A stretch of DNA of 64,000 nt from an uncultured bacterium (GTDB lineage Bacteria > Fidelibacterota > UBA2242): NCBI GenBank assembly GCA_964589175.1, contig CAZPRY010000015.1, positions 18,530-82,529 of the forward strand, in the 5' to 3' direction. The notes beneath the pieces were generated by a model. The model was not told where the DNA came from. It was given only the letters and a program-made list of their open reading frames with translations, and ran no database searches. Position 1 is the stretch's first letter, and each line of letters begins with the position of its first letter. A program made the position numbers and the translations under genes. Shown here in pieces: positions 1,808-35,941 of this stretch.

Positions 1808-4345
1808 ATGATGAAAACGACTTTGTTATTTTGCAGGCTGATGGCATTATTCCTTTTGTTTTCTATGCCGTTGCTGCTACAAGCACAATTACCCAGTGAA
1901 TTTACCTTCACTGATCCGATCGGTGATACCGAACCAGCATGTGTAGATTATGTCGGGGGCTATTTCGTTCAGCAAGGAGATAGTGTGCTGGTCGGTTTTA
2001 CTATGAATGGTCCGTTCTCTGACAGGGTGTACGGGGAGAGTCTGAACTCATTTACTCTCGATACGGACAGCGATCCTAACACGGGACAGTATCGTGGTAA
2101 TGAAGACAATGTTGATTTTCATGACTACGGAGGCGGTCACTGGTTTGGAAGAATGTATTTAGAGTGGGATGGCACCGTAAATTCATTTATGACGAGAGCA
2201 GTTGTACCCGTTAAAGTAACCGAAGACGGCAAAACCATGTACTGGAAATTTTCTCTGGTCGGTACCGGTTGGGAGGAATTGGAGTACTTTCTCGATGGAT
2301 GGTACAAAGATGGTAATTATTGGCATCAGGTACCCCACTTTGGGGGGGATATGATGGAAGAGCCGGGCCTCTTTACTATCGATGTATCCCTGGTTGCACA
2401 GCTGACAGAAAAAGTCGGCACCAATTGCGTCATCGAAGTTCCGGAACTTTACTCCTCAACTGCAGATGCGAAAAATATTACCGGCGTAGTCGATGAGATG
2501 GTGGATCTGGTTAGATCCCAAATCGGTACTATTGCAGAGAGTGACAGGAAATTCCGGGTGGATTATGAGAATTATAACAGCTATGCAGCGCCTATCGTTT
2601 ATGGATCTGGTGGCGTCAATCAATTTGGCTGCCGTATTCCCGGACAGTATTGGGTGGATGAGCCCAATTGGTACGCAATGTTAGAAGGTGTTGTAGATCA
2701 AACTCTTTGCGCATTCAGCACTGGATTGAGAGAAGTAATGCTAACGCAGAAGAGTTATCAGCGACCGATTCCCGTCAACGGGGAAGGTTGGTATTGCACC
2801 CTTGAAGATAGTATAAATGGCTTTAAATGGGATGCCCACCATAAATGGACGATGAAAGCATTGCTGGCGAATGCCTATGAAAATTGCTATGTATACTATA
2901 TTGCGGAGAGCATGACGGATGGGGCTGCTAAAACCGCGATTATGAACAAGAAGGCGGATATACTCGCGGCCTGGAATAACTTTTCCGGTACAGCCCGAGA
3001 TTTAACTCCTGAGTTAATGACCGGCTTACTTCTCTCCCTGTCCGATGATCTGAGTTGGACGGCTACCGTGTTCGAAGAGATTATCCCGAATGCCTTCGAC
3101 ACCGCAGATTCCACAAATGCTTTCACCCAGATTGTGAATAATTACACACGTAATTCTGATTTTTCAATCAGCAGTTCGGATGATTTTCTGACCCAGGCTC
3201 ATCATAGATGGTATGGTGTAATTGCAGCGGTTCAAGCGGCAGCGATTGAGCTGGCTATGGGCGAAGATCTTTACAGTGTACTGGAAGGAATACCGGATTT
3301 TCCGATCGATCAGGCTGTATATGCAGATGTCAAGAGTCTCTTAGGTCCAGGCGAAGATCCCTATAGCATTGATGATACTGTCCCATATGTATGGAATGAC
3401 ATCAGCACAATTGGCACGGAAATACCACGCGCTGATTTTACAGCACCTTGGGCTACGGTTGATGTCGATGACGGCGGTACCAGTCCGATTGCGATGGGAA
3501 TGAGTTTTGACTTTTATGATGCCACATTCGATAGTATCCGTATCGGTATTAACGGTATATGTTCGTTTACCGATCCTATTGAGTGGATTACTTCAGGAAG
3601 CTACGGAACGACGATTCCCGGTATGGGTTGGGATAATATTTTATGCCCACTTGCGTGTGATATTATGGGAGACAAAGCATATAATTCTGCTCCATATAAT
3701 ACAGCGACAGGTGTAATTTATTACTACCATAATTCTACTGCCGGTACCTTTACCGTTCAGTATCATAATATGACCAATCATCATTACGTAACTGGTGAAG
3801 AGGGCAGTCAGGTATGTCCGGATACGACTCTAACATTTCAGATCGTTCTGGACCCCAGCGATGCCTCCATTACCTTCTATTACAAGGATTTGGGTATTGC
3901 ACCGGAACCATGCGCGAAGCGGGCAACTATCGGAATTCAACCCGGGAAAGACAGCGGTCTGGGGTGTCAGTATTATGGCAACAACCTACCGGCGGATGGT
4001 TATCCCCAAAATGAAACAGCGATCAAGTTTTATAAGGGGGGAGTGGCCATTAAGGATGTCAATGTGAATCGACCTGGCGAATTTTCACTGATGCAGAACT
4101 ACCCGAATCCGTTTAACCCGGTTACCAGTATAGCGTTTACCATCCCGATGCGTACCAAGGTGAGTTTGGTGGTGTACGATATGCTTGGACGTAAAGTCGC
4201 CGATCTGGTTGAGAACCAAGTTGTCGACAGCGGATATCACAGCTACTCCTGGGATGCTTCCAATCTGTCTTCAGGTATTTATTTCTATCGTTTAGAAGTT
4301 GATGGGCAGAGCAGTCTGACCAAGAAATGCGTTTTTATGAAGTAA
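1808..4345 (+). CDS. Secreted multidomain protein: DPxGD (DOMON/glucodextranase-like) domain, degenerate gluzincin-like domain, nidogen-like domain, C-terminal T9SS-type sorting domain
   Basis: Signal peptide; TDPIGD; aligns with 4444-6207 but has EGVVD in place of HELGH; DDGGTSPIAMGMSFDFY...INGICSF (NIDO-like); QNYPNPFNP...YDMLGRKV...SGIYFYRL...KKCVFMK CTD; RBS GGAGG. Confidence 0.75.
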   Translation: MMKTTLLFCRLMALFLLFSMPLLLQAQLPSEFTFTDPIGDTEPACVDYVGGYFVQQGDSVLVGFTMNGPFSDRVYGESLNSFTLDTDSDPNTGQYRGNEDNVDFHDYGGGHWFGRMYLEWDGTVNSFMTRAVVPVKVTEDGKTMYWKFSLVGTGWEELEYFLDGWYKDGNYWHQVPHFGGDMMEEPGLFTIDVSLVAQLTEKVGTNCVIEVPELYSSTADAKNITGVVDEMVDLVRSQIGTIAESDRKFRVDYENYNSYAAPIVYGSGGVNQFGCRIPGQYWVDEPNWYAMLEGVVDQTLCAFSTGLREVMLTQKSYQRPIPVNGEGWYCTLEDSINGFKWDAHHKWTMKALLANAYENCYVYYIAESMTDGAAKTAIMNKKADILAAWNNFSGTARDLTPELMTGLLLSLSDDLSWTATVFEEIIPNAFDTADSTNAFTQIVNNYTRNSDFSISSSDDFLTQAHHRWYGVIAAVQAAAIELAMGEDLYSVLEGIPDFPIDQAVYADVKSLLGPGEDPYSIDDTVPYVWNDISTIGTEIPRADFTAPWATVDVDDGGTSPIAMGMSFDFYDATFDSIRIGINGICSFTDPIEWITSGSYGTTIPGMGWDNILCPLACDIMGDKAYNSAPYNTATGVIYYYHNSTAGTFTVQYHNMTNHHYVTGEEGSQVCPDTTLTFQIVLDPSDASITFYYKDLGIAPEPCAKRATIGIQPGKDSGLGCQYYGNNLPADGYPQNETAIKFYKGGVAIKDVNVNRPGEFSLMQNYPNPFNPVTSIAFTIPMRTKVSLVVYDMLGRKVADLVENQVVDSGYHSYSWDASNLSSGIYFYRLEVDGQSSLTKKCVFMK

Positions 4346-4355
4346 AAAGCGCTTG

Positions 4356-4443: not shown

Positions 4444-6207
4444 ATGATTGGATCATATAAAAAGAACATTCTGATCTTGCTAATGGTGCTATTGGCTGCA
4501 GCGTTTCCAATAGTCTCACAGACCATTGAGGATCCAATCGGCGATGTTTCGACAGGCCATCCCGACTATGTGGATTTTGAAAAAGTAAAATTTTGGCAAT
4601 CCAGTGGTCAACCGGATGCAATGTATATTGATTTTTATACGAAGGGCGCCATCCCGAAAGGGAATCAGGCCGGAATTGGTGCAACTACAATCTTTGAAGT
4701 TTACATGGATGTTGATGATAACAGTAATACCGGCGTCAAGTTGGAGGATATCGGATACGATTATAAACTGTTTGCCAATCTCTACGATTGGAACGGGAAA
4801 AACTGGATCGACGGAACGGTTTACTGGGATTATGATGCCTCTGGCTCAGCGCATTCCCTGAGTGGATTTTATACTTTTGCCGAGGGTAATCCAAGATCTA
4901 CGGCGCCTTATCGATTCAGATGGGAATTTTCGCTAATCGGTTTGAAGTGTTCCCGGATCAAATGGATAGCAAGAACAAAATATGGCGTCTATTGGTCGGA
5001 TCAAATTCCCGATGAGGGACATGCTATCCTGGAGGTTGACACGACTGGTGTGGCGGATATTGATACCGTTCGGGGGGAACATATTGAATTCATTTGTCCA
5101 TCGACCTATAAAGAAGTCCTGGAGAGATGTGATGTCATCAAAGCCATTGACCTGGGAACTCAGATTCAGAGTCAGCTGTGTGGCACCGAATTTCACGGTA
5201 TCCAGGTTATCCAATATAATCCGTGGATGCATGGTGTCGCTTCTTGTGGCAATCCCGTAGATATGGGCTCATGGATGTGGAACGATAATCCGCCATGGTT
5301 TGTTGTTTTTCATGAATTAGGTCATAACTATACTCTGGCGGCGGATCGATTTAATAATCTATACCCTGCGCTTGGTTATGACACACTAATGGGGGGAGAT
5401 AATTGGGATTATGGAACGAACTATGTAGAAGCCTGGGCGAGCATGGTGGGCCTCTTTGCAGTCCATGAACTATTCAGCAAGAGTGGGCAGTATCAATTAA
5501 CAACCGAGGGTGCAGCAAGTCTGGAGCAGGGATTTAACGATCAAAAAAATTCATTTATGGGACAACTTCAAGGTTATGAGGAAGATCCCAATTTCCATAT
5601 TCTGACTCCCGATTTATTGGACGGTATGTTTATGTCTCTGGGGGAGGAGTACGGATATGAGATATTCCCTCGATTTTTCAGGATACTGCAGCCTCCGGAT
5701 CAATCCTGGGACGTTCTCACCGTTGTTAAAAATAATGTGAGAAGTAACTACGATCTGTCGAAAACGGTGGCAATGACTGTCACTTGTTGCGCCTTCAGCG
5801 TGGCAGCGGGAGCGGATCTCCGCACTCAGTTCAGGGATCAATGGGATTTCCCGATTGACAACGAGAAATATGAAGAGATCAAGCCGGAAATTGAGGCCAT
5901 GATGATGACCGGCGTCGACGAAAACCCGGGATTAGCGGATAAGATGCAGTTTAGGCTTTATCCCAACCATCCCAACCCTTTTAACTCGAGCACGATTATC
6001 AGTTACCAAATTGGACAACAATCAGAAGTAAGAATAAAAATTTATGACCTGTTGGGAAATCTGGTCAGGATTATAGATGAAGGTCATAGAAATGCCGGAG
6101 ATCATCATTTTATCTGGGACGCTTCAAATATTTCCAGTGGAATCTATATCTATTCTGTAGAAACCAACCAGGGGGTGAAGGCTAAAAAATGTGTATTCCT
6201 AAGATAA
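4444..6207 (+). CDS. Secreted gluzincin-like (HExxH) metallopeptidase with DPxGD domain and T9SS-type CTD
   Basis: Signal peptide from MIGSYKKNIL (the ORF-track start at 4327 overlaps the previous gene and hairpin); EDPIGD; WFVVFHELGHN plus downstream EAWA; PNHPNPFN...SGIYIY CTD. Confidence 0.8.
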   Translation: MIGSYKKNILILLMVLLAAAFPIVSQTIEDPIGDVSTGHPDYVDFEKVKFWQSSGQPDAMYIDFYTKGAIPKGNQAGIGATTIFEVYMDVDDNSNTGVKLEDIGYDYKLFANLYDWNGKNWIDGTVYWDYDASGSAHSLSGFYTFAEGNPRSTAPYRFRWEFSLIGLKCSRIKWIARTKYGVYWSDQIPDEGHAILEVDTTGVADIDTVRGEHIEFICPSTYKEVLERCDVIKAIDLGTQIQSQLCGTEFHGIQVIQYNPWMHGVASCGNPVDMGSWMWNDNPPWFVVFHELGHNYTLAADRFNNLYPALGYDTLMGGDNWDYGTNYVEAWASMVGLFAVHELFSKSGQYQLTTEGAASLEQGFNDQKNSFMGQLQGYEEDPNFHILTPDLLDGMFMSLGEEYGYEIFPRFFRILQPPDQSWDVLTVVKNNVRSNYDLSKTVAMTVTCCAFSVAAGADLRTQFRDQWDFPIDNEKYEEIKPEIEAMMMTGVDENPGLADKMQFRLYPNHPNPFNSSTIISYQIGQQSEVRIKIYDLLGNLVRIIDEGHRNAGDHHFIWDASNISSGIYIYSVETNQGVKAKKCVFLR

Positions 6208-6279: not shown

Positions 6280-9261
6280 ATGAAAAGCAAATATTTTAGC
6301 TATTTTCTAATCATCCTACTGATGATAACATCATCTACCCTAGTTTTTGCCGGTACAAAGGGCAAGATTGTCGGGCTTATTGTAGAGAAGGAGACCGGCC
6401 AACCACTGCCGGGCGCCAACATCGTTTTAGAGGGCACCTTGCTCGGCACAATGACCGACGTAGACGGACACTACTTTATCTTGAATATCCCGAGCGGAAC
6501 CTACTCCTTGAAAGTCAGCTATATAGGGTACAGCCCGGTAACCGTCAAGAACGTAGAAGTCATTCAGGATTTGCTTACCGAAATAAATGTTGAAATGCAA
6601 TCCAAGGTACTTGATATCGGTGTGGCGGTAGAGGTATATGCTGAACGTCCTCTGATCCATAAAGAGGTTTCTTCTTCCACCAGGACATTGTCTTCCGAAG
6701 AATTCGAAAATCTGATTGTGGAATCCGTTGGTTCAGTCATAAATACATCGGCGGGCGTTGTAGGCGGTAACTATATTCGGGGCAGCCGCTGGACAGAAGT
6801 CAGTTATATGGTGGATGGCCTATCGTTGACCAATCCGATTAGCGGCGGCATGATCACCGATATCAATAAGAATGCGGTGGAAGAGATTGTTTTACAGACG
6901 GGGGGATTTTCCGCAGAGTACGGAAATGCCATGGGCGGTATCGTCAATGTCGTCACCAAAGAGGGCGGTCCCGAGTACAGCGGGAGTCTGCGCTACAAAA
7001 CCGATAAAGTGAATTCGGGCAGTCAATTCTATCAGAACGCCAATATCTGGGATTTTACTTTTGGCGGTCCGATGGTAAAGAAGGGAAGAATATTTTTCAC
7101 CGGCTATCTGAATACCCGCGATATGAATTCCCAGCGAGAAGTGATCGCGCCGGACGGTACCAATCTCGGTCGCCATCCCCACGAAGGTTTTCAGGAATAC
7201 CGCACCAATTTCAAATATTCTCTGCCTGTCACATCCTCCCTGAAACTGAAAATGACCTGGTCAATGAACAGATCGCAAGGTCTCAACTATAATATGTTTT
7301 GGCGTTTTGGTGCCGATGAAAATCAATTGGATCGCTTGGGGGCCTGGTTGAATAAATCGAAATATGGCGCAATTATTCTGGAGCATGCCATCAGCTCCAG
7401 AGCCTACCATACGCTTAAAGTAGGGATGATGGATTGGCATTCGATCAGCGGACAGCGCGACCGTGCAGAATGGTCGGGGAATAAGGTAGGCGCCAATTGT
7501 GACTGGTGGAAAGATTTCACCTTCCGCAAACCCTTTATCGATCACAATTACCAGATACCCGGGGATGCCACCGGTACTCAATACAGTAAGTGGCGTTTGC
7601 GTGACAGTCAGGGCATAGATGATGTTTATCAGAGACGAACAACCGATTTGGTATCGCCAAGTAATCCTTATGGAATCACGGGCGGTATTCAAAATACAAT
7701 GGATGCTGATTATTTTGAAAATTTCATCTGGGCCGGCGATGGCGACTGGTTTTCAGAGAATCGAGACCGCAATTTCATCGTGAAATACGATCTGACCAGC
7801 CAGATCCATAAAAATCATGAGATCAAGGCTGGATTTGAGTTTAACAAGCACAACGTCAATCGCTTCGCGATCGGAGCAATGTCCGCTCTGAATGGTATCG
7901 GCGTCACTTACCCGCTTATCGATTTTTATGAAGAGTCGCCGAGCGATACGGCCTTGACAATTGAATCTGTCAATGATTTGGGTGATGGGTACCGGCCCCT
8001 GGAGTTCGCATCTTACGTCAACTACCAGCTTCAATTGGAGGGCATGTATTTGAATCTTGGATTGCGTTTTGACTATTTTAATGCAGTCACAGAATATCGT
8101 ATTGATCCGATTCAAAGCACTCCGTCAAATCCGTTTAAGCAAGACCGGACGAATCCCGATCCAAAATACCAATTAAGCCCGCGCTTAGGAATATCATTTC
8201 CGGTCACGGACAGGACGATGTTTAGATTTAACTACGGGCACTTTTTCCAAACTCCTCCGCTGGAACGGATGTTTGCGTACCTATGGTTTGATCGGAATCA
8301 GGCTGATTTAAACATGGGCAATCCTGATATTGAACCCCAAAAAACGATCGCCTATGAAGTAGGCCTCTCAACAATTTTAACCGAAAATGTCGCTTTGGAT
8401 CTTACTCTTTATCAGAAAAATATGTTTAACCTGGAAGGTTACAGGATCAGAAGATCTCCTACTTTAGACTGGTTTTTCCAGGCCTTCAATGAGGAATATG
8501 CTGAAGCCAAAGGCTTTGAACTCACTTTACGAAAGCGATACAGCCATTACTTTGGGGGCTCGATCAGTTATTCGTTCTGCACGGCTGAAGGTACTTCGTC
8601 CGATGTAACCCAAATTACGCGATACCCATTGCTGAGTCTCACCTATGCCAGACTATTGGGATATGAACCGCTTTATCCTCAGGATACTATGCCGATGGAT
8701 TTTGATCAAAACCACACGGTTTATATTAATCTGGACTTCAGAATCCCGTATGGCGAGGGACCTAGTATATTCAATAAAAAGCTGCTCTCCGGTTTTGGAG
8801 CAAATATCATGTCGACCTTTCATTCGGGCAGACCCTATACCCCGGTCACGGCATATACGATGAATGTCACCAGTGACCGTTTCAACTCAGCGCGTTATCC
8901 GTGGACATACACTGCCGACGGCAAATTTTACAAGGATTTTCGAATCCTGGGTCAAGAATTGACCTTGTTTGTAGAAGTATACAATCTGTTCAATTTACAA
9001 AAGCCGTTTTCCGTCTTTGAAGGTTCGGGCAATCCTGATCAGGATATGTACAATCTGACCGCAGGTTGTCTTTCCTCCGATACCTACCTGAAAGGAGAGA
9101 GTAATCTGTATTCCGAGTTGGCGGATTTGAATGGTGATGGCGCTTTGACGACGCAGGAGCGCGTAGTTGCATATCAGCGCTTTCGGGATGATATGTTGAA
9201 GTTCAAAAGAAATTATCCCAACCCCAGAACATTCATGATTGGCCTGGATATTAAATTTTGA
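6280..9261 (+). CDS. TonB-dependent receptor with N-terminal carboxypeptidase-regulatory-like domain
   Basis: Signal peptide, GKIVG...PLPGANIV...TDVDGHYFILNIPSGTY, plug (YIRGSR, YMVDG, GGFSAEYGNAMGGIVNVVTK), barrel motifs SPRLGISFP and GNPDIEPQKT, C-terminal NPRTFMIGLDIKF. Confidence 0.93.
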   Translation: MKSKYFSYFLIILLMITSSTLVFAGTKGKIVGLIVEKETGQPLPGANIVLEGTLLGTMTDVDGHYFILNIPSGTYSLKVSYIGYSPVTVKNVEVIQDLLTEINVEMQSKVLDIGVAVEVYAERPLIHKEVSSSTRTLSSEEFENLIVESVGSVINTSAGVVGGNYIRGSRWTEVSYMVDGLSLTNPISGGMITDINKNAVEEIVLQTGGFSAEYGNAMGGIVNVVTKEGGPEYSGSLRYKTDKVNSGSQFYQNANIWDFTFGGPMVKKGRIFFTGYLNTRDMNSQREVIAPDGTNLGRHPHEGFQEYRTNFKYSLPVTSSLKLKMTWSMNRSQGLNYNMFWRFGADENQLDRLGAWLNKSKYGAIILEHAISSRAYHTLKVGMMDWHSISGQRDRAEWSGNKVGANCDWWKDFTFRKPFIDHNYQIPGDATGTQYSKWRLRDSQGIDDVYQRRTTDLVSPSNPYGITGGIQNTMDADYFENFIWAGDGDWFSENRDRNFIVKYDLTSQIHKNHEIKAGFEFNKHNVNRFAIGAMSALNGIGVTYPLIDFYEESPSDTALTIESVNDLGDGYRPLEFASYVNYQLQLEGMYLNLGLRFDYFNAVTEYRIDPIQSTPSNPFKQDRTNPDPKYQLSPRLGISFPVTDRTMFRFNYGHFFQTPPLERMFAYLWFDRNQADLNMGNPDIEPQKTIAYEVGLSTILTENVALDLTLYQKNMFNLEGYRIRRSPTLDWFFQAFNEEYAEAKGFELTLRKRYSHYFGGSISYSFCTAEGTSSDVTQITRYPLLSLTYARLLGYEPLYPQDTMPMDFDQNHTVYINLDFRIPYGEGPSIFNKKLLSGFGANIMSTFHSGRPYTPVTAYTMNVTSDRFNSARYPWTYTADGKFYKDFRILGQELTLFVEVYNLFNLQKPFSVFEGSGNPDQDMYNLTAGCLSSDTYLKGESNLYSELADLNGDGALTTQERVVAYQRFRDDMLKFKRNYPNPRTFMIGLDIKF

Positions 9262-9345
9262 GAATGCAGTGTGCTGTAGATACAGATCACGAAATAGACT
9301 CCTGTTGGAGCTAGTGAAGTAGTTACAAAAAAGGGGAAGTGCATT

Positions 9346-12138
9346 ATGAGTTCTAAACAAATTACTAGATCAATTATGCCCGCGATTATGGTTCTTTTAT
9401 TTATTGGGCTGTGTATAAATGATTTGAGGATATGGGCACTGCCAAAAGACAACCGATCTTTAGATAAAATCACTATACATGATTTACGGCATATCTATGC
9501 CCGATATGATATTCCAATTGCTAATGACGGTCGTTTTGGCTGGGATCCGACGGCACAAACTCCCGGTGGCGGTATATGGCTGCGCGGAACCAATGAAGGA
9601 TATATTTTTGGCGCAGGCATCTGGATCGGTGCTAAAGTTGATGGGCGTAAACAGGTCACCGTCGGTTATAACACATCGAACTGTCAGACGGAATTGGTGC
9701 CGGGAAATCTTCCGAACGAACCGGGCTATACCGATCCGTCCGAAATTATTTTTGTAAGTACGGACTATCCCAATGCAGCTTTACCGCCATGGCCCGGTGG
9801 CTACGGCCAAGACGGGAATCCTATTGCTTTTTCCCAGATGGATTCCTGGTGTCAGTGTAATGATTTGGACGCTTCCCGGCAATTCGAGGCCGGCAAGCCG
9901 CTGGGCATTTTACTGACCGCCGAAACCTACTCCTGGACCAGCAGTTTCCGGGATGTGTGGGATATTGCCTTCGTTAAATATACCGTGAAAAATATCAATC
10001 CCGATCAGAAAACATTGGAAGACGCCTATATTGGTTTTGCTATGGATCCCGATATCGGTGATCCGACCAATGATTTGACAGGCTGCTTTCCCGATTTGAA
10101 TATTGGCTTCGCCTATAGTGCGGAGGAATTATCGGGCATAGAGAAAGACTTAGAGCATCCGCCCGGATATGTGGGCATCAAGTTTCTTGACGGACCGGCT
10201 AAGGATCCGGTTACCGGTGAGGCGAAAATGTCTTGCTTTCGTCGTTGGGCAACAGATCCCAGTACAGATGAGATGCGGTACGATTTACTGTCGGAAGAAT
10301 ATTATGATCTGGAAGATACCGAACCGGCTGACAAACGGATATTCTTATCCTCCGGTCCGTTCAATCTGGCCTATGGCGAATCGACCACCTTCGTGGTAGC
10401 GATGTGTTTCGCCTGGCCCATGTGGTACATCGATTCATCGGTCAAAGGGCAGCCGGAACATTACGCGGATTATCTGAAATTGGTCGCGGAAAACGCGCAG
10501 TTTGTTTATGATAATAACTATAGATTCCCACAGCCTCCGAATATGCCGCGGATTCGACTGAATCCCCAGGATCAGAAGATCATCGTGATCTGGGACAATA
10601 AAGCCGAAGAAACTGTCGAACGGATTCTCTCCTTGCCGGACTTCTCCGATTCATTGGACTTTGAAGGCTACAAACTCTGGAAAAGTACGACCGGCGATGA
10701 GGGCAGTTTCGAGATGCTGGGGCAATGGGACAAAGTAAGTTTTGACGATTTAGGCAATCCGATCGGTAAGAACACGGGCCTGGCGCACAGTTATGTCGAT
10801 GAGGATCTGATCAACGGGAAACTCTATTTCTACGCGGTCACTGCCTACGATAAGGGGGAATATCAACCGCTGGGCTATGGCGATCCCGAGTTCGAGGTTG
10901 TGCCTCCCATGGAAACGGGCACGGTTTTTGGCGTCAACCTGAACGCGGAGACTCCGAATTCACCACCCTCCAACTTCACCGAACCGCAGATGGAAGGATT
11001 GGAGCTAATCGCAGGCGACGCGGATGAGCTTCAGTTTATCGTCAGTCCCGAATATCTGATAGCGGACAGCGTGAAGAATAAGACCTTCCAGATACGATTC
11101 TCCGGTTTGCCGAGTTTCCGATACGATAAAGAAGTATCGGTTTACGGACCCGATATTTATCTTGTTAATACGGCAACGGAAGACACGGTCGTCAGCACCC
11201 TGAATTTTCCGATAGGCAGTCCGGCTGCAACGGTCAAGTCAGACCTGTTTGATGGGATGCTGTTGAGTTACACGGGTCCGAATATCCTGTTGAATGCAAT
11301 CGATACGGCCTACTTCAAGCAGGCGAAGACGGGCGTGACGATCCATCCGGAAACGGATTATGAGACCTATAATACCCCCCAAACAAGCATACCGCTGGAT
11401 TTACCGTACGGGGCCTATTTCCTACCGCATGAGTACTTGATCGAGTTTTATGAAGTTGCCGGTAAAAGAAGGGTGAATGTCTACGATCTGGACAACGGCG
11501 ATACATTGCAATACGAGGCCAAGTCTTTTGGTCGCGATTTTGCACTGGCCAGTTTTGAGAAGGTTGTCGCATCTGTGGATCCGGTTTCGGGGGATACGAC
11601 CTGGACCTGGTACAATAATCCGGTGGATTTCAGGAACAGTCTGTCCAATGAAGCGGGTGGTTACAAGATTTACGTACCGGGCGCCTTTATCTTTGTAGAA
11701 GACCCGGGTCATGAGGTGGTTGCGGGAGATTCACTGATTGTGAGACTTTCCGGGGTAAGTGCACCTCGGGGAGGGGATGTGTATCAATTTTCAACGGTGG
11801 CGAGCCAGGTGAATTATCATACCCAGTTGGATGTCAAAGTGGTTCCCAATCCCTATCTGGTGCGGGCGGCCTGGGATATCGATAATGATTACCAGAAGGT
11901 CCAGTTTATTAATCTGCCGACGGAATGCACAATCAGAATCTATACGATAGCGGGCGATCTGGTGCAGACAATCCATCACGGAGCACCGTACGGAACGGGC
12001 TTCGATAGTGAGACCGGGGGGACGGCCTTCTGGAATTTGATGACCCGTAATAATCAGAAAGCATCCACGGGAGTGTATGTCTTTTATCTCGATTCTCCTT
12101 TCGGAAAAGATGTCGGAAAGTTCGCAATCATTAGATAG
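9346..12138 (+). CDS. Large secreted protein with a fibronectin-III-like region and a VVPNPY-type C-terminal sorting-like domain; TBDR partner
   Basis: Signal-like N-terminus; DFEGYKLWKS...YVDEDLINGKLYFYAVTAYD (FN3-like); VKVVPNPY...FINLPTECTIRIYTIAGDLV...WNLMTRNNQKASTGVY...GKFAIIR. Confidence 0.7.
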   Translation: MSSKQITRSIMPAIMVLLFIGLCINDLRIWALPKDNRSLDKITIHDLRHIYARYDIPIANDGRFGWDPTAQTPGGGIWLRGTNEGYIFGAGIWIGAKVDGRKQVTVGYNTSNCQTELVPGNLPNEPGYTDPSEIIFVSTDYPNAALPPWPGGYGQDGNPIAFSQMDSWCQCNDLDASRQFEAGKPLGILLTAETYSWTSSFRDVWDIAFVKYTVKNINPDQKTLEDAYIGFAMDPDIGDPTNDLTGCFPDLNIGFAYSAEELSGIEKDLEHPPGYVGIKFLDGPAKDPVTGEAKMSCFRRWATDPSTDEMRYDLLSEEYYDLEDTEPADKRIFLSSGPFNLAYGESTTFVVAMCFAWPMWYIDSSVKGQPEHYADYLKLVAENAQFVYDNNYRFPQPPNMPRIRLNPQDQKIIVIWDNKAEETVERILSLPDFSDSLDFEGYKLWKSTTGDEGSFEMLGQWDKVSFDDLGNPIGKNTGLAHSYVDEDLINGKLYFYAVTAYDKGEYQPLGYGDPEFEVVPPMETGTVFGVNLNAETPNSPPSNFTEPQMEGLELIAGDADELQFIVSPEYLIADSVKNKTFQIRFSGLPSFRYDKEVSVYGPDIYLVNTATEDTVVSTLNFPIGSPAATVKSDLFDGMLLSYTGPNILLNAIDTAYFKQAKTGVTIHPETDYETYNTPQTSIPLDLPYGAYFLPHEYLIEFYEVAGKRRVNVYDLDNGDTLQYEAKSFGRDFALASFEKVVASVDPVSGDTTWTWYNNPVDFRNSLSNEAGGYKIYVPGAFIFVEDPGHEVVAGDSLIVRLSGVSAPRGGDVYQFSTVASQVNYHTQLDVKVVPNPYLVRAAWDIDNDYQKVQFINLPTECTIRIYTIAGDLVQTIHHGAPYGTGFDSETGGTAFWNLMTRNNQKASTGVYVFYLDSPFGKDVGKFAIIR

Positions 12139-16178: not shown

Positions 16179-16184
16179 TCCAGT

Positions 16185-26000: not shown

Positions 26001-26170
26001 GTGGACAGGAAGTCAATGCCAGGGTCACGTTGCCCGGTTTGTCTATTCAAGGGGTTCGCGTGACGAACCTTGTCGAGGAAAATATCGGAGAAACGGCTTT
26101 CACCGAACATGAAATCGCAGTGCCGATCAGAGCTTTCGGGATTAGCACGGTTCGCGTGCAAACACAATAA
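23063..26170 (+). CDS. GH38-like glycoside hydrolase (alpha-mannosidase family)
   Basis: ISHHDLGYTD, FIKEGRIEV, FRWEGPDG, DEHTWG, VFNPLSFSRT, VPPVGYKTY, LKQAED...IRLIE. Confidence 0.85.
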   Translation: MSQSSLDNLLRSDVLIWFVKIGLMSTFLLFAIAKSADKAMPALRLIKIEPTVLFVNEQDRLLQLVKISISNERRATSIQLDMQVGEWQQSLSLGKVVKGESTFDVFVPDISAPASAEFVLKSGDKIRDRRQFELQPQRHWEVFMVPISHHDLGYTDAIENILLRHDRYYDDVLRFCEETADFPDESKYRYTAEVAWSLRHFLENRPKEVVETIVKFIKEGRIEVHAFLGNEITGLCGHEELIRLMYPSFQLKRKYGITVGVGSETDVAGLSWGLPTILAGAGIKYFYGGMPNYGVFFKNDEFAYYLDENGNDIHQFWDESAVLRHGRQPEAFRWEGPDGESVLFYYGSTGGVGCYGCWRPTSYEDTAKNLPIMLRKMEDNGSQFSVVRYGTYGCYDNAAPEILPSLIAREWNSQWAYPKLIVATSSMFFKELEKQCQDVRVFRGELPHTDYVRGVMSTARETSINRITHDKLTTAEKFATIASVISDYPYPADELRQAYENMLLYDEHTWGLANPSGTIQDWNWNDKSHFALKAAGLTESILSSSLDRIAQSIEIEDENSRIVVFNPLSFSRTDLVRLSGFDRKEPFEIRDAETGQIVPHQICEINSPRELIPYGGQRYAMGQLNHSELFDLMFVAENVPPVGYKTYRLIPIDKATTQAGNVVVDNTIMENRFFKVAIDPHSGAIVSIYDKELDREIVDRNAPYALNQFVTRSSKTLEQRTIENAKIIVGQNGSVCGSIIISGEVVGCPQITQEIILYDKIKRIDIANRILKDYTPLQEIYFAFPFEMDNPNFRYEGSDAVIEPIVDQFPGSNTCYYAVQHWAEVSDGKVGITLSPVESHLLEFGGLWPCYISPGMHIAVMPDDRSWLDSIPTSFDKGHIYAYVLDSNFRTNFSSAQQGDMLFRYSITTHMDDWKSGQARDFGWATGNPLIATLLDGRNEGSLTEKSDSFIQIDKPNVLVLTLKQAEDEDGLIIRLIETGGQEVNARVTLPGLSIQGVRVTNLVEENIGETAFTEHEIAVPIRAFGISTVRVQTQ

Positions 26171-28139: not shown

Positions 28140-28140
28140 A

Positions 28141-31525: not shown

Positions 31526-32860
31526 ATGAAACATAGCATTCTTTTTTTAGCATCGAGTATTATTATCATTCTTTTATTTGGCTGTCAATCTCATCCGGGG
31601 AGTCAAAAAAGTAAAATAACCTTCAATTACTCAAAGTTCATTTCCGACAAGGCCGCCACATTTTTTGCGTATGTCAAATCTGTGGATTATGATACCGGAA
31701 AAGTTATCATCGCCGGTGGTGACAAGCGCGAATCCGTTACGCCGTTTTCATTGCAATGGGGAGACGGTTCCGTCCAGGAAGGCTTATTTCCTCAGGAACA
31801 TGTCTATGCTGATCTGACAAAAAACTATAGCATTCGCGTAATCTCCCAGTATTCCGAGGATGAATCGGATACGGCAGAATTATTCATCCGTTTTGCAGCG
31901 CCGGTAATTATTCAGAAGGCTCTCCCGGCAAATATAATGGTCTCAATACCGGACTCCTTGGTTATGCTTGAAAGCAGGATGCCAAAAGTGGAAATGTACG
32001 AATTCTCAAAAGAGCTGGCCTGTTTTGGAGACCAATTTTTTCCTATCACACCCAGGACAACCATCGAATATATACTCAGCGTGGCAGCCGCAATCCAGAT
32101 GGATTTGGTCAACGATAATGTCTACATGGACGATGGTACATTTCGGCAGATTATGCTGAGAGACGCCGGATTTGGCGGAATGTATTCGCTCTGGTATACC
32201 AACCCGGTGAGCTTTGGTGTTGGTGATTGGGGCTTCCGGGGGGCGATTCAGTGGTCTTCGTTTTTTCATGAAATGGGCCACAATTTTACACTGAACACAC
32301 CGGCTGATTACTATTTCGGCGGAAAAACGGACGGCAACGCCAACGCGATATATTCCGAAGCAATGGCCCAGATATTTCAACATGTGACGGCATATGAGAT
32401 AATTAATAATTATAAAAAATATGGCTTAAGCGAAGACCTTGCATATGAAATAAGATTATCTGCAAATGCTTCTTTTTTTTGGACAGTAACATCATATAAT
32501 AGATATATCACTTCTGGAAAGAACTTCAGATCTTGGAATGATCCCAATGTTCCCCAAGATGAAACAGTTGGTACTTTCATGACTCTCGCATACAAGTTTT
32601 TTGAACATGCAGAACGCGAAAAAGCCGACTATCGTGCGACACTAAAACGGATGATGTCCTTTCTGCAAAATTTCAATGAAGATTGGCATCGTCAGTATGA
32701 ACCTGATAAAGACTCCGTGGAAGGTGAGAGTTTTCGGGCTACAATGATGGTGTCGGCATTGTCTTATGCGTTTGATAAAGATTTAAGACAAGAATTTAAA
32801 GATCTTAATTTCCCTGTAAATGATGATGTTTATTTGGAATTATTGGCATGTACAAATTGA
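31526..32860 (+). CDS. Lipoprotein with PKD-like domain and gluzincin-like HExxH domain
   Basis: Lipobox LLFG-C; LQWGDGS...QEHVY (PKD); FFHEMGHN...SEAMAQ; C-terminal DLRQEFKDLNFPV; no CTD. Confidence 0.8.
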   Translation: MKHSILFLASSIIIILLFGCQSHPGSQKSKITFNYSKFISDKAATFFAYVKSVDYDTGKVIIAGGDKRESVTPFSLQWGDGSVQEGLFPQEHVYADLTKNYSIRVISQYSEDESDTAELFIRFAAPVIIQKALPANIMVSIPDSLVMLESRMPKVEMYEFSKELACFGDQFFPITPRTTIEYILSVAAAIQMDLVNDNVYMDDGTFRQIMLRDAGFGGMYSLWYTNPVSFGVGDWGFRGAIQWSSFFHEMGHNFTLNTPADYYFGGKTDGNANAIYSEAMAQIFQHVTAYEIINNYKKYGLSEDLAYEIRLSANASFFWTVTSYNRYITSGKNFRSWNDPNVPQDETVGTFMTLAYKFFEHAEREKADYRATLKRMMSFLQNFNEDWHRQYEPDKDSVEGESFRATMMVSALSYAFDKDLRQEFKDLNFPVNDDVYLELLACTN

Positions 32861-32945: not shown

Positions 32946-34265
32946 ATGATAAAAGCAAATAATTCTGTTTTTACTGAAATAAGAGAATATATAAGTGGTA
33001 TTCCATTAATTGATACACATGAACATTATCTAGGGATTACTGAACCGGTAAAAAATATCTGGAATTTTATTATGTCGGGATATCACGACTCAGATATGCA
33101 ATCAGCATCGTTTGGTAATGAAATTTATTATAAAAATATATTTGATAATACATTGTCATTTGATGAACGGTATAGTGCTTTTGAAAAAATATATAAAAAA
33201 ATAAAAAATACTGCATATGTAAAAGCATTTGAAATAGGATTAAAGAGATGTTGGGATATAGATGAAATCAATCTATCAACAATAAAAGATCTTTGTACGA
33301 AATTATTATCAAGAGAACAAAATTTTTATAATGCTTTAATAGAAAAGCACAATATTTTAATTAAGATTGTAGATGTATGTGATGCAGATAAATTTGTTGA
33401 AATAATTAACGGAACAAATAAAAACTATTCTAAATATTGTAGATTTGCATTTCCACTTCCATCTTTCCATAACATACATTCTTGTCAAGATATTAAAAAA
33501 TTGGAAAAGTATAATGAAGGAATGATAATTAAATCGCTGGATGATTACATCGATAATTTTAGTGTTTTACTAAAAAAAGCAGTTGATTTTGGAATCGTAT
33601 GCCTTAAAGATCAGACCGCTTATAGACGGATAATTGATTATAATAATCCAAGTAAAACTGAAGCGGAAAGTATTTTTAATAAAATAATATCAAATCCAAG
33701 AGACATTTTTTCATCAAATGAAGTTCGACCTCTTGATGATTGGCTTTTTCATAATTTTATTAATCTTGCGAAACAGTACAAATTACCAATACAAATTCAT
33801 ACAGGCCATATGGCTGGAATAAGAAATGATATTGTAAAAGCAAATGCAGCTCATTTAATAAAAGTAATAGAACTGCACTCGGATGTAGCTTTTGATTTAT
33901 TTCATGGAAATTGGCCGTATATGGGTGAATATTTGTTTATTGGTAAGAATTATCCAAACGCTTATCTTGATTTATGTTGGGTACAAACGATTGATCCCTT
34001 GTATTCTATAGAATTAATGAAAAGAGCAATTGTAACAGTACCACATAACAAAATAATGATATTTGGTGGCGATACAAACAAAATTGAAAATACTATAGGT
34101 TACTTAGAACTTGCAAAAGATAATGTTGCTTATGCTTTAAGTGAAATGATTGAAATGGATTATTTATCAAAAAATGAAGCAGGACAAATAGCAGTAGATT
34201 GGTTTTTTAATAATCCTAATGAACTATTTAATTTGGGATTAAAAAAACTAGAAAGAAAAATCTAA
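32946..34265 (+). CDS. Amidohydrolase family protein (uronate-isomerase-like) no. 3, strongly AT-rich
   Basis: LIDTHEH, PIQIHTG, FDLFHG, NAYLD, IFGGD; the sample line 33121-33180 is 12/60 G+C. Confidence 0.85.
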   Translation: MIKANNSVFTEIREYISGIPLIDTHEHYLGITEPVKNIWNFIMSGYHDSDMQSASFGNEIYYKNIFDNTLSFDERYSAFEKIYKKIKNTAYVKAFEIGLKRCWDIDEINLSTIKDLCTKLLSREQNFYNALIEKHNILIKIVDVCDADKFVEIINGTNKNYSKYCRFAFPLPSFHNIHSCQDIKKLEKYNEGMIIKSLDDYIDNFSVLLKKAVDFGIVCLKDQTAYRRIIDYNNPSKTEAESIFNKIISNPRDIFSSNEVRPLDDWLFHNFINLAKQYKLPIQIHTGHMAGIRNDIVKANAAHLIKVIELHSDVAFDLFHGNWPYMGEYLFIGKNYPNAYLDLCWVQTIDPLYSIELMKRAIVTVPHNKIMIFGGDTNKIENTIGYLELAKDNVAYALSEMIEMDYLSKNEAGQIAVDWFFNNPNELFNLGLKKLERKI

Positions 34266-35941
34266 TGATTAATAAAATAGATATGAAAAATTCAGCGGCA
34301 ATTTCGAAATTAAGATTTTACTTCTCACGAAACCTGTCCAGTATATCGTTAAGCCGAGCAATCATTTTAATCCTGCTTATAATAGCAATAAATCTAAATT
34401 TATACGCTAAAGAACAGGATGATCATTTTGATTTTAAAAAGTATCTATTTGGAGAAATTTCGACTTTATCTGTATATATACAGGATATTAATTATACCAC
34501 TGGTGAAGTTAATATCAGCGGATCTGATTCACAATGTCCTACTACTCCATTTACGTGGGATTGGGGAGATGGAACTATTAATGATGGATTTTTCCCTAAG
34601 CAACACACTTATTCCGATTTGACCAAAATATACAGTGTCAAGGTTACTGCACATTATTTTGATGGGGGAACGGATTCAGCGGAAATAACGATTCTTTTTG
34701 TTCCTCCTACTCCTCCTATCATTACTCCGGTATCTTTATCTCCAGATATAGCGATATCAATACCTGCTTCTAAGGTTACGCTAACAAGTAGACTATATGG
34801 TATCCCGAGCGGTTTAACTTACTTTGATGATAGTTTTTTTAATATCATCCCAAGATCAACAATTGAATATGTTTTAACGGCTGCAGCATCCATTCAAAGA
34901 GATTTTGTTAATGACGATGTATATCAAATCGATGGAGGTTTTAAACAGGTTCTTTTAAGATACCCTGGATTTGGCGGAATGTGTTCACTCTGGTATACGA
35001 ATCCTGTTAGTTTTGGCGTTGGGGATTATGGATTTCAAGGAACGATCCAGTGGTCATCTTTTTTTCATGAAATGGGCCACAATTTTACTTTGAATACGCC
35101 GGCCGATTACTATTTCGGAGGAAAGATTGATGGCAACGCGAATGCGATCTATTCCGAAACAATGGCCCAGATATTTCAACATGCCACGGCTTATGAGATC
35201 ATCAACAACGCCAGTAGCTATGGTCTAGGCGAAGATATCGTTGCGGATATAAAGGAGAGTGCCATTTCTTCCATCGCAATTGTCAGGAATTTCTACGAGG
35301 ACTATTGTAATTCCGGGATGAATTTTACTTCGTGGAACGATCCTATTACAGGTAGTGATGAGACGATAAAGATTTTCATGACTATTGCCTACAAATTCTT
35401 AGAACATGCTGAAAATTCGGATTTGGAATACCGAATTCCGTTGAAAAGAATGCTGACGCTTCTACAGGGATTTAATCAAGATCTCCGAAGTAGATATGAT
35501 CAAGCTAACAATACAATCGCTACCGATTTCTTCAGAGCGACCCTCATGGTATCTGCGGTCTCGTATGCTTTTGAGACTGACTTACGGGCGGAGTTCCGGG
35601 ATTTGAATTTTCCGGTGGATGATGAGACCTATGAAGAGTTGTTGAGTACGGTGACGGACGTTAGAGAATTCGATAATCCGGTAATGTCAAATTTTGAACT
35701 GCAACAAAATTATCCGAATCCTTTCAATCCAACGACTTCAATCGATTTTTCCATTGAAACCGGCAAAAAAGGAGTTCTTTCCGTTTTCAATATCAATGGA
35801 CAAATACTTGAGGTATGCAGATTTGATGAAGGAAATCACAGATTTTACTGGGATGGTTCAAAGTATGCCTCCGGAATTTATTTTTATAAATTGGAATCGG
35901 ATAATCGTTATGAAGTCAGAAAGATGTTAATGATATGGTGA
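34265..35941 (+). CDS. Secreted PKD + gluzincin-like HExxH protein with T9SS-type CTD; close paralog of 31526-32860
   Basis: WDWGDG...QHTY, FFHEMGHN...SETMAQ, DLRAEFRDLNFPVD, QNYPNPFNP...SGIYFYKL...RKMLMIW. Confidence 0.8.
   Translation: MINKIDMKNSAAISKLRFYFSRNLSSISLSRAIILILLIIAINLNLYAKEQDDHFDFKKYLFGEISTLSVYIQDINYTTGEVNISGSDSQCPTTPFTWDWGDGTINDGFFPKQHTYSDLTKIYSVKVTAHYFDGGTDSAEITILFVPPTPPIITPVSLSPDIAISIPASKVTLTSRLYGIPSGLTYFDDSFFNIIPRSTIEYVLTAAASIQRDFVNDDVYQIDGGFKQVLLRYPGFGGMCSLWYTNPVSFGVGDYGFQGTIQWSSFFHEMGHNFTLNTPADYYFGGKIDGNANAIYSETMAQIFQHATAYEIINNASSYGLGEDIVADIKESAISSIAIVRNFYEDYCNSGMNFTSWNDPITGSDETIKIFMTIAYKFLEHAENSDLEYRIPLKRMLTLLQGFNQDLRSRYDQANNTIATDFFRATLMVSAVSYAFETDLRAEFRDLNFPVDDETYEELLSTVTDVREFDNPVMSNFELQQNYPNPFNPTTSIDFSIETGKKGVLSVFNINGQILEVCRFDEGNHRFYWDGSKYASGIYFYKLESDNRYEVRKMLMIW

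Follow-up and report, generated by a model that had tools for sequence, protein, structure and literature searches.

A putative M60-like paralog family in the mannose-utilisation locus of an uncultured Marinimicrobia-type bacterium

The M60 (PF13402) O-glycopeptidases, which include BT4244, ZmpA/B/C, IMPa, AM0627, BcM60s and EfmM60, are the nearest known relatives of the proteins described here. M60 enzymes cleave only beside O-glycosylated Ser/Thr and often carry CBM32, CBM5_12, CBM51 or BACON modules. Their motif has been published as HEXXHX(8,28)E (PMC3267712), and the Trp of the M60 sequence WXXXHEXXH contacts O-linked GalNAc (PMC13580078). Svx proteins of Pectobacterium and Dickeya are secreted gluzincins with the motif HEXXHX(22)E and are predicted glycopeptidases acting on plant extensins (PMC10815107).

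A 64,000-nt stretch of DNA from an uncultured Marinimicrobia-type bacterium, hereafter the window, contained five colinear paralogous ORFs, designated HEx0 to HEx4, all on the + strand and within one 44-kb mannose-utilisation gene cluster. A preliminary description had read them as a possibly unnamed family of glycan-dependent peptidases. We lean, with slightly more than even confidence, towards far-diverged M60-like paralogs serving a dedicated glycoprotein pathway, which would cut glycoproteins into importable glycopeptides.

The five paralogs and their modules

HEx0, nt 1808-4345, + strand: T9SS-sorted type, dead paralog; DPxGD N-terminal module, M60-like domain without HExxH, Por_Secre_tail
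HEx1, nt 4444-6207, + strand: T9SS-sorted type, active-type paralog; DPxGD module; Glu368 at nt 5428-5430
HEx2, nt 18473-19984, + strand: Sec signal without sorting tail; prealbumin-like N-terminal domain; Glu354 at nt 19532-19534
HEx3, nt 31526-32860, + strand: lipoprotein type (LLFGC lipobox); PKD and catalytic domains; Glu293 at nt 32357-32359
HEx4, nt 34265-35941, + strand: T9SS-sorted type; PKD and catalytic domains; Glu298 at nt 35156-35158; GC content low (37.6%)

The four active-type paralogs HEx1 to HEx4 possessed F-HExGH-N, with F before and N after HExGH in each: HELGH at aa 329 (nt 5311-5325), HEVGH at aa 320 (nt 19430-19444), HEMGH at aa 263 (nt 32267-32281) and HEMGH at aa 268 (nt 35066-35080), respectively. 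The candidate third zinc ligand, a Glu, followed the second His at distances of 34, 29, 25 and 25 residues (E368, E354, E293 and E298), and all four proteins carried the C-terminal motif S/A-x-A-x3-DLRxxF...FP[IVL][DN], which was DLRTQF...FPID in HEx1 (nt 5791-5874) and still recognisable in HEx0 as EDLYSVLEGIPDFPID. The HExxH motif, the downstream Glu and the C-terminal motif of the four ORFs had been reported in the preliminary description and were confirmed. In HEx1 to HEx4, the two His and the downstream Glu are predicted to bind zinc, with the HExxH Glu as general base. Among 44 homologs, the H, E and H of HExxH were invariant; the downstream Glu, which lay within a predicted helix at residues 150-170 of the AlphaFold catalytic-domain model, was near-invariant in the HEx3/4-centred alignments, and E354 was invariant across the HEx2 subfamily. 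The gluzincin type proposed earlier was thus borne out, as it was by the folds described below.

Pairwise comparison gave E 9e-163 and 54% identity for HEx3 and HEx4, E 5e-31 and 29% identity for HEx1 and HEx2, and E 3e-8 for HEx1 and HEx3, while HEx0, with its sorting tail left out, matched HEx1 at E 6e-11 with 22% identity over 532 residues. On this sequence evidence the five genes are one paralog family, with similarity far above chance. That the motifs are shared by chance or low complexity and the five ORFs form no family, a proposal favoured only by the shortness of HExxH itself, has next to no probability and is refuted by pairwise E-values down to that of HEx3 and HEx4, by colinearity across 300-500 residues and by profile-profile probabilities of 94-96%. 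In the 4.43-Mb assembly, the family profile matched HEx1 to HEx4 only, all inside the window, HEx0 being too diverged in sequence to score.

HEx0, previously described as a degenerate fifth member, indeed proved colinear with HEx1 but lacked HExxH (LEGVVDQ, nt 2681-2701), and it carried an extra insert of ~250 aa. At least 34 orthologs were found in at least 3 phyla, and HExxH and the third Glu were absent in 16 of the 16 aligned, the replacing residues being varied. Judged from its residues, HEx0 is a catalytically dead paralog that has lost every catalytic residue, yet is conserved across phyla. It was encoded directly upstream of the active-type HEx1 and a TonB-dependent receptor.

All five N-termini were of signal or lipobox type. 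The HEx1 ORF was open from nt 4327 and the HEx3 ORF from nt 31481; translation probably starts at nt 4444 and 31526, where an internal Met opens a signal peptide and a lipoprotein signal, respectively. Por_Secre_tail (PF18962/TIGR04183) was detected on HEx0, HEx1 and HEx4 with E 1e-9 to 1e-11 (PF18962 on HEx0, E 1.7e-10), and the Pfam/NCBIfam profile search found no such domain in HEx2 or HEx3. HEx1 and HEx4 are predicted to be exported by the type IX secretion system and HEx3 to be a lipoprotein; HEx2 probably passes via Sec to the periplasm, beside the ABC solute-binding protein. Of the differing N-terminal modules noted before, the PKD domain of the HEx3/HEx4 type was upheld by a Foldseek match to PKD domains at probability 1.0 and by Pfam PKD_4 in 20 of 44 homologs, and the DPxGD module was found in common in HEx0 and HEx1, with no match among Pfam models or PDB sequences; the Cna-B/Ig reading yielded SpaA and CarboxypepD_reg matches, all sub-threshold.

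Relation to the M60-like superfamily

The catalytic domain of the five proteins was covered by no Pfam or NCBIfam model. Compared with the PF13402 gathering score of 25.8 bits, HEx2 reached 17.3, and HEx0, HEx1, HEx3 and HEx4 gave no match. Within the HEx2 subfamily (n=21, the window protein and 20 orthologs), PF13402 was matched at E<=0.1 by 18 of the 21 members, with 3.5e-6 as the best E-value; a precomputed match to it existed for 3. When aligned by hhalign with 21 canonical M60 domains, chosen for W at -4, the HEx2 subfamily gave a probability of 95.7% (E 8.6e-9, 267 columns), with HExxH, the third Glu and the C-terminal DL..F..W/FP motif in register. The HEx3/4 subfamily gave 94.4% (E 8.5e-8) with the HEx2 subfamily and, with canonical M60 directly, 8.9% in an alignment confined to the HExxH surroundings; its link to M60 is transitive, by way of the HEx2 subfamily.

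AlphaFold models of HEx3 had pLDDT of 86.7 at full length and 89.8 for the catalytic domain. A Foldseek search of the PDB with the latter, a structure prediction of the kind proposed beforehand, placed the M60 enzymes ZmpC, ZmpB and ZmpA best (probability 0.99-1.0), with modest fold similarity (TM 0.37-0.41, E 2e-3), followed by M61, M4 and M1 gluzincins. Enzymes of M60, M61 and M4 took ranks 1-6 and 8-13, as befits the thermolysin-like fold of gluzincins (clan MA, subclan E), and an uncharacterised protein came at rank 7; TM over these matches was only 0.31-0.44. Profile-profile match, borderline PF13402 matches and fold agree with the M60-like character suggested earlier, and place the proteins as strongly diverged branches within the known M60-like (enhancin-like) gluzincin superfamily. 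With HEx2 matching canonical M60, HEx3/4 matching HEx2 and M60 folds nearest, they constitute neither a wholly new family nor a separate one within clan MA. The earlier term "possibly unnamed family" holds in that no Pfam or NCBIfam model names the proteins, but not in that they branch from a known superfamily.

A Trp was located at -5 from the first His in HEx1 (WFVVFHE) and HEx3/4 (WSSFFHE), and a Phe at -4 in HEx2 (FFLSFHE). Of the His-to-Glu spacers, that of HEx3 and HEx4 falls inside X(8,28), whereas those of HEx2 and HEx1 fall outside. The Pfam scan found no CBM32, CBM5_12, CBM51 or BACON modules in the window proteins; the 44 homologs had one CBM_4_9 match and one BACON_2 match. Neither 61 genomes of the phylum nor 8 with clade B (see below) contained canonical PF13402, so the known M60 family cannot fill the role there.

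The mannose locus, its neighbours and distribution

The locus consisted of 29 co-directional genes with short gaps, including those for GH38, GH42, GH130, DUF2961, an isomerase and kinases; the five paralogs lie among glycosidases, as the preliminary description had stated. Its regulation appears to be sigma-54 dependent. Neighbours of the HEx genes were as follows.

nt 6280-13277, + strand: uptake module after HEx0/HEx1 (Pfam), made up of the next three genes
nt 6280-9261, + strand: TonB-dependent receptor (Pfam)
nt 9346-12138, + strand: unk930, a secreted protein of 930 aa without family match
nt 12270-13277, + strand: PorV-like barrel (Pfam)
nt 15273-18451, + strand: ABC permeases (two) with solute-binding protein, next to HEx2 on its upstream side
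nt 19909-21303, + strand: Amidohydro_2/UxaC-like gene, directly after HEx2
nt 26210-27526 and nt 32946-34265: Amidohydro_2/UxaC-like paralogs, the second between HEx3 and HEx4
nt 23063-26170, + strand: GH38 alpha-mannosidase with N-terminal signal or anchor
nt 36015-37292, + strand: M28 aminopeptidase, directly after HEx4
nt 37366-39393, + strand: DUF2961 protein with signal peptide
nt 39501-40517, + strand: GH130 mannoside phosphorylase

A PUL in the strict sense has a SusC-like gene next to a SusD-like one; here no SusD-family match was found among the scanned locus ORFs, the 930-aa gene after the receptor having no Pfam match. The secreted enzymes were the HEx proteins, a C25-like protein, GH38 and DUF2961.

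Much of this arrangement recurred elsewhere. The order receptor-unk930-PorV-like was kept in the Ignavibacteriaceae locus L018; homologs of unk930 and the PorV-like protein were present in L005 and L076, and one of the PorV-like protein in L042. HEx2 adjoined a solute-binding protein gene in L004, L005, L042 and L076, an amidohydrolase gene adjoined a HEx gene in L001, L003, L004, L036, L040, L042 and L062, and GH130 did so in L003-L005, L008, L036, L040, L042, L062 and L076. M28 followed the HEx3/4-type gene in L003, L004, L005, L008 and L042 (Marinimicrobia, Caldithrix). In Kryptoniota L040, an M61 aminopeptidase and an amino-acid permease lay between the HEx1-like gene and GH130, and Bacteroidota L036, L062 and L064 had same-sized genes at that position. 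The conservation of aminopeptidases (M28 or M61) and an amino-acid permease in this locus type adds support that the preliminary description had not drawn on.

In the tree, HEx1 fell in clade A (1808, 4444 and 18473 types) and HEx3 and HEx4 in separate subclades of clade B (PKD-fused). Clade A lay inside this locus type in 10 of the 10 loci seen, down to 40% identity. Clade B was scattered over >15 phyla; its FCB-lineage members were co-encoded with CAZymes, whereas most homologs outside the FCB group stood alone among housekeeping genes without carbohydrate context. The co-encoding with CAZymes claimed earlier is thus true of clade A and of FCB-lineage clade B, and the lack of enrichment near CAZymes, named at that time as refuting the claim, applies by half to clade B because most of its homologs stand alone.

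This scatter agrees with a different reading, in which the proteins are ordinary glycan-independent secreted metalloendopeptidases for protein scavenging and sit in a sugar locus through common regulation or export and not through a common substrate. We consider it unlikely, though a serious contender. In its favour, the window proteins had no detected carbohydrate-binding module, the Trp that contacts GalNAc in M60 is out of register (PMC13580078), and many plain secreted proteases, e.g. PrtV and collagenases, have PKD domains. On the other hand, M60 enzymes leave unglycosylated proteins uncut (PMC13580078). The confinement of clade A to this locus type, the position of HEx2, wedged between an amidohydrolase gene and the gene for a solute-binding protein of sugar type, and the graded localisation of five paralogs, which suggests a dedicated pathway, likewise argue against scavenging.

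Animal TCAF proteins employ the M60-like fold for binding. A role of the HEx proteins in binding, or in hydrolysing bonds of a mannose-rich polymer other than peptide bonds (for instance an amide or ester substituent, or the linkage of a glycan to an amino acid), would accord with the conservation of the certainly non-catalytic HEx0, with the repeated pairing of HEx genes with Amidohydro_2 genes and with the absence of a recognisable secreted endo-glycanase from the locus. We regard such a role as very improbable, since the HExxH...E set is kept throughout the four active-type subfamilies and, to our knowledge, serves peptide-bond hydrolysis in every characterised member of clan MA; the aminopeptidases and amino-acid permease, moreover, point to peptide products.

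Proposed pathway and comparison with known systems

A glycopeptidase function is plausible for the active-type paralogs. In the glycoprotein pathway that we favour, surface enzymes would first cleave the backbone of a glycoprotein that bears mannose and galactose, HEx0 serving as a substrate-capture subunit, and the glycopeptides would enter through the TonB receptor. In the periplasm, HEx2 would trim them together with the GH38 and DUF2961 proteins, both of which bear signals, and the products would be imported by the ABC system. In the cytoplasm, GH130, GH42, the M28 aminopeptidase, amidohydrolases, mannose/lyxose isomerase and kinases would finish the sugars and peptides.

More tentatively, as a possibility that we doubt, the locus may represent a glycopeptide-utilisation system of SusD-less FCB bacteria, in which far-diverged M60-like peptidases would recognise a protein glycan of mannose type (non-GalNAc), the displaced Trp would be the sign of an altered glycan subsite and the dead paralog would be a surface capture protein that feeds the TonB receptor; the widespread clade B would be a glycoprotease of sediments and soils, extracellular, horizontally mobile and so far unrecognised, in bacteria and archaea. 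If true, no M60-type enzyme set before it would have been devoted to non-mucin glycoproteins of the environment.

The HEx proteins share with M60 enzymes the gluzincin HExxH...E site, a colinear catalytic domain including the C-terminal DL..FF..WG-type motif, the nearest solved folds, and an extracellular, multi-paralog occurrence beside glycan-degrading genes. They differ in being below the Pfam threshold or invisible to PF13402, in having Trp at -5 (HEx1, HEx3 and HEx4) instead of -4, in the longer spacers of HEx2 (29) and HEx1 (34), beyond X(8,28), and in modules, which are PKD, prealbumin-like or DPxGD versus CBM32, CBM51 or BACON. Their hosts are free-living sediment or groundwater-type FCB bacteria, their locus is mannose-centred (GH38, GH130) in place of the GalNAc/mucin loci of M60, and their set includes a conserved dead paralog. 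Baculovirus enhancins (M60, PF03272) belong to the same superfamily, VEF-2 being a weak Foldseek match (rank 6, E 0.39, TM 0.35), but their similarity to HEx is very weak, and they are viral and target insect mucin.

As in Bacteroidota PULs with surface glycan-binding proteins, a surface enzyme and a proposed non-catalytic binding partner are encoded beside a TonB-dependent importer, and trimming enzymes of periplasm and cytoplasm follow. Unlike those PULs, the locus has no SusD homolog, the receptor partners being the unannotated 930-aa protein and the PorV-like barrel; a dead peptidase paralog is proposed as the binding partner, an ABC system serves for uptake across the inner membrane, and regulation is apparently of the sigma-54 type. 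Svx differs in its acyltransferase-like second domain and as a virulence factor of plant pathogens, but by its description provides a precedent for a gluzincin fold acting on non-mucin, non-animal glycoproteins (PMC10815107).

Five paralogs and their superfamily

The five paralogous ORFs of the window were located as follows.

1808-4345, + strand: HEx0, ORF of the catalytically dead copy
4327/4444-6207, + strand: HEx1, ORF with HExGH at aa 329 (nt 5311)
18473-19984, + strand: HEx2, ORF with HExGH at aa 320 (nt 19430)
31481/31526-32860, + strand: HEx3, ORF with HExGH at aa 263 (nt 32267)
34265-35941, + strand: HEx4, ORF with HExGH at aa 268 (nt 35066)

Translation and alignment confirmed the preliminary description in that HEx1, HEx2, HEx3, and HEx4 possessed F-HExGH-N, a Glu situated 34, 29, 25, and 25 residues downstream of the second His, respectively, and a common C-terminal A-x-S-x-A-x3-DLRxxF...FP[IVL][DN]; the starts it had chosen for HEx1 and HEx3, 4444 and 31526, were likely the true start codons. 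The ORF at 1808, described there as a degenerate fifth member, was indeed colinear with HEx1, sharing 22% identity over 532 residues (E 6e-11) as measured outside the shared sorting tail. In pairwise comparisons, HEx3 and HEx4 were the closest (54% identity, E 9e-163), followed by HEx1 and HEx2 (E 5e-31) and HEx1 and HEx3 (E 3e-8). When the family profile was searched against the 4.43-Mb, 114-contig assembly, matches were confined to the window's own family genes. Of the N-terminal modules proposed earlier, PKD was borne out for HEx3 and HEx4, with a Foldseek probability of 1.0 to the PKD domains of PrtV and collagenase and PKD_4 matched by Pfam in 20 of 44 homologs; the DPxGD module obtained no identity from Pfam or PDB sequence searches.

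Scans of the five proteins against Pfam-A and NCBIfam detected no catalytic-domain family over threshold, the clear match being a T9SS sorting tail on HEx0, HEx1, and HEx4, with otherwise weak PKD- and prealbumin-like matches. HEx2 matched PF13402 (Peptidase_M60) below threshold (17.3 bits, E 0.0036) in the C-terminal quarter of the model. PF13402 was found at E<=0.1 in 18 of the 21 members of the HEx2 subfamily (best 3.5e-6), and three of the 21 carried a precomputed match. With 21 canonical M60 domains gathered from Bacteroidota genomes as the reference set, hhalign aligned the HEx2-subfamily profile at 95.7% (E 8.6e-9, 267 columns), whereas an earlier comparison with only two canonical sequences was not significant (E 0.15). 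In the alignment with the 21 domains, three elements kept register, namely HExxH, the Glu of the third ligand, and the C-terminal DLTDFFxxWGF / DLRxQFxKWdFP; what had been noticed as a C-terminal helix motif is thus the signature conserved at the C-terminal end of M60 domains. The HEx2 and HEx3/4 subfamilies aligned at 94.4% (E 8.5e-8, 235 columns), HEx1 and HEx2 having been taken out of the target alignment. Since the direct comparison of the HEx3/4 subfamily with canonical M60 was not significant (8.9%), its link to M60 is transitive.

Because PKD and Ig matches dominated the whole-protein Foldseek search, the catalytic domain of HEx3 was modelled and searched alone. Against the PDB, the AlphaFold2 model (pLDDT 89.8, pTM 0.91) matched M60 domains best, those of ZmpC, ZmpB, and ZmpA from C. 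perfringens (probability 0.99-1.0, E 2e-3 to 3e-2, TM 0.37-0.41), and M61, M4, and M1 gluzincins came next. Searches of the PDB by sequence and profile detected no related solved structure, and viral models yielded only weak matches to enhancin and uncharacterised proteins. Four lines of evidence thus place the family in the M60-like gluzincin superfamily, an assignment that we regard as well supported and hold with high confidence, and the HEx enzymes are likely peptidases. The earlier suggestion of a possibly unnamed family stands insofar as no Pfam or NCBIfam catalytic model matched, but is an overstatement in view of the M60-like placement. The family is an un-modelled and environmentally widespread branch of the M60 superfamily, whose features include a pseudo-peptidase partner that is itself conserved and a locus centred on mannose.

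Phylogeny, distribution and the dead paralog

In a maximum-likelihood tree with canonical M60 as the root, 98 catalytic domains separated into two clades. Clade A (SH-aLRT 99) comprised HEx0, HEx1, and HEx2 together with HEx1-like genes from Bacteroidota and Kryptoniota, the HEx0 stem being very long (5.0 substitutions per site). Within clade B, the PKD-fused HEx3/4 type, internal branches were short and phyla were intermingled throughout, with at least 9 changes required for Bacteroidota and 6 changes for the 6 Planctomycetota rows, and an archaeal group (Thermoplasmatota and Bathyarchaeia) was nested within it. This pattern of short branches, mixed phyla, and nested archaea indicates frequent horizontal transfer. 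The archaeal members (L009, L012, and L071; Thermoplasmata and Bathyarchaeia) formed a small group sharing about 50% identity with the bacterial proteins, and their nesting implies transfer between domains. HEx3 fell in a lipoprotein subclade of Marinimicrobia (Fidelibacterota) and HEx4 in another subclade; the two are not recent duplicates.

Clade B members shared 45-55% identity across more than 15 phyla and bore the sorting signal suited to the host, that is, a T9SS tail, PEP-CTERM, or dockerin. Tandem double catalytic domains were observed in some of them, such as the 1228-aa protein of locus L028 (259-3945), which has two HEMGH sites; proteins P0176 (1041 aa) and P0177 (1532 aa) each had two matched stretches. 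Of 1.84 billion cluster representatives searched with the profile, 251 matched at E<=1e-30 and 628 matched at E<=1e-10, the looser counts possibly taking in PKD-only or tail-only matches, so that the branch amounts to some 250-600 clusters (50% identity), mainly from uncultured environmental bacteria and some archaea. Cultured carriers of clade B include Runella zeae DSM 19591, Spirosoma terrae KCTC 52035, and Dyadobacter sp. CY261, which opens the question to experiment. PF13402 was found in none of 61 genomes of the window's phylum and in none of 8 clade-B-carrying genomes, which suggests complementary distributions of canonical M60 and the branch described here. In sampled Bacteroidota it was rare (2 of 121).

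In HEx0, LEGVVDQ occupied the position of FHELGHN in HEx1. Searching with the non-tail part of HEx0 revealed at least 34 orthologs, among them records named Marinimicrobia and KSB1 and one on a Caldithrix-type contig; Ignavibacteriaceae (locus L018) provided a further one. A T9SS tail was present in 33 of the 34 (precomputed Pfam), and many contained an additional insertion of some 250 aa. Neither HExxH nor the third Glu was retained in any of 16 aligned orthologs. The residues at the lost site differed (LEGVVDQ, LNGVVDQ, LSGLQNM, LFGLENM, and others), indicating that there is no conserved alternative metal site. A re-engineered acidic metal site (H->E, H->D) was considered and rejected, as the two positions varied among E/N/D/H/S/F/L and D/N/Y, and Gly stood in place of the general-base Glu. 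In both the window and L018, the gene order was sigma-54 activator, HEx0, active HEx, TonB receptor, unk930 (a 930-aa secreted protein), and PorV-like barrel. HEx0 is thus a conserved pseudo-peptidase, with a putative role in substrate binding.

The mannose locus and its relatives

The five genes belong to a run of 29 co-directional genes with short gaps, extending from 1808 to 45969.

Gene order of the mannose locus
HEx0, HEx1, TonB-dependent receptor, unk930, PorV-like barrel
Xylose-isomerase-like TIM barrel, Zn-ADH, two ABC permeases, solute-binding protein
HEx2, Amidohydro_2 gene, C25-like T9SS protein, GH38
Amidohydro_2 gene, lyxose/mannose isomerase-like gene, PfkB kinase, GH42
HEx3, Amidohydro_2 gene, HEx4, M28 aminopeptidase, DUF2961, GH130
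ABC ATPase, MFS sugar transporter, unknown protein, ROK kinase

N-termini read by eye suggest that HEx0 to HEx4, the C25-like protein, GH38, DUF2961, and unk930 are exported, while GH42, GH130, M28, the amidohydrolases, isomerase, and kinases appear cytoplasmic. The TonB-dependent receptor, unk930 (without a Pfam match), and the PorV-like barrel formed a module after HEx0 and HEx1 (6280-13277), beside which no SusD homolog was found. The T9SS-sorted protein of 535 aa (21431-23038) showed a partial match to Peptidase_C25 (gingipain-like, E 1.7e-7) and may represent a further exported protease encoded here. Near the locus end, a 607-aa ORF without a Pfam match (43235-45058) lay between the MFS sugar transporter and the ROK kinase.

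Three Amidohydro_2/UxaC-like paralogs were present (19909-21303, 26210-27526, and 32946-34265), and such a gene directly adjoined an HEx gene in the window and in L001, L003, L004, L036, L040, L042, and L062; that its substrate is a glyco-amino-acid remnant is speculation. GC content was 27% in the amidohydrolase gene at 32946-34265 and 37.6% in HEx4, against about 45% in the rest of the locus. Relatives also differed here: in L003 and L004, the HEx3-type gene was followed directly by M28, and in L001 by the counterpart of the gene at 32946-34265. These observations suggest that foreign DNA entered the operon recently at 32946-35941.

The locus recurred in Marinimicrobia (L001-L005 and L008), Ignavibacteriaceae (L018), Kryptoniota (L040), Caldithrix (L042), Bacteroidota MAGs (L036, L062, and L064), and a metagenome contig (L076). 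The solute-binding protein gene always adjoined HEx2, down to 40% identity; the order TonB receptor, unk930, PorV-like was kept in L018, and homologs of the latter two occurred again in L005 and L076. M28 followed the HEx3/4-type gene in the Marinimicrobia and Caldithrix versions. In Kryptoniota (L040, 5469-8784), an M61 glycyl aminopeptidase with PDZ and an amino-acid permease lay between the HEx1-like gene and GH130, where the three Bacteroidota loci had genes of the same sizes (matched by size). Genes handling peptides and mannosides therefore travel with HEx genes, as the recurrence of M28, M61/permease, and GH130 shows; of the arguments from context, this one speaks most strongly for a glycopeptide substrate. 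In one lineage group, the branch is hard-wired into a mannose/GH130 catabolic locus with aminopeptidases.

The expectation that homologs lie near CAZymes held for clade A, whose genes were restricted to this locus type (10 of 10 loci seen), but not for clade B elsewhere. Outside the mannose-locus lineages, the 67 co-directional neighbours of clade-B genes were for the most part other T9SS cargo (11), proteins of the BNR/sortilin type, and unrelated enzymes, and sugar-related members of the 25 listed neighbour families were only GHL10 (2) and a few others. On four inspected long contigs, the clade-B gene stood alone amid genes of phosphate uptake, fatty-acid synthesis, signalling, or topoisomerase. 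A Pho-regulon association, raised by phosphate-uptake genes in 2 of 4 inspected contexts, was rejected, the total being 2 of 75 loci, which was treated as chance.

Proposed function and comparison with known systems

Overall, a five-step use of glycopeptides is the most likely mechanism, and our confidence in it is moderate. HEx1, HEx3, and HEx4, at the surface or extracellular, would cut a mannose- and galactose-bearing glycoprotein with the assistance of dead HEx0; the TonB receptor would carry the glycopeptides over the outer membrane; HEx2, GH38, and DUF2961 would trim them in the periplasm; the ABC system would import the products; and GH130, GH42, M28, the amidohydrolases, isomerase, and kinases would finish them in the cytoplasm. 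That the HEx enzymes depend on glycans, and that the substrate is a glycoprotein bearing mannose and galactose, is proposed more tentatively. Cutting beside mannose-type or other non-GalNAc glycans, if true, would account for the feeding of SusD-less FCB bacteria on environmental (algal, fungal, or S-layer) glycoproteins, widen the specificity range of glycoproteases as reagents, and offer a clear case in which a pseudo-peptidase was recruited to serve as a binding subunit.

To our knowledge, M60-type O-glycopeptidases, which serve as glycoproteomics tools, have been found almost solely in host-associated mucin degraders. In the published enzymes WXXXHEXXH is conserved, and its Trp contributes to the binding of GalNAc (PMC13580078); compared with this motif, the HEx sequences WFVVFHE and WSSFFHE have Trp at -5, and FFLSFHE has Phe at -4 and -5. 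The M60 definition comprises HEXXHX(8,28)E and frequent CBM32, CBM51, or BACON modules (PMC3267712), whereas the His-Glu spacers of HEx2 (29) and HEx1 (34) exceed this range and the HEx proteins lack these modules. The HEx locus also differs from characterised M60 systems in possessing GH38 and GH130 and no GalNAc- or mucin-type genes. The Svx peptidases, gluzincins for which an action on non-mucin glycoproteins has been predicted, offer a published precedent (PMC10815107).
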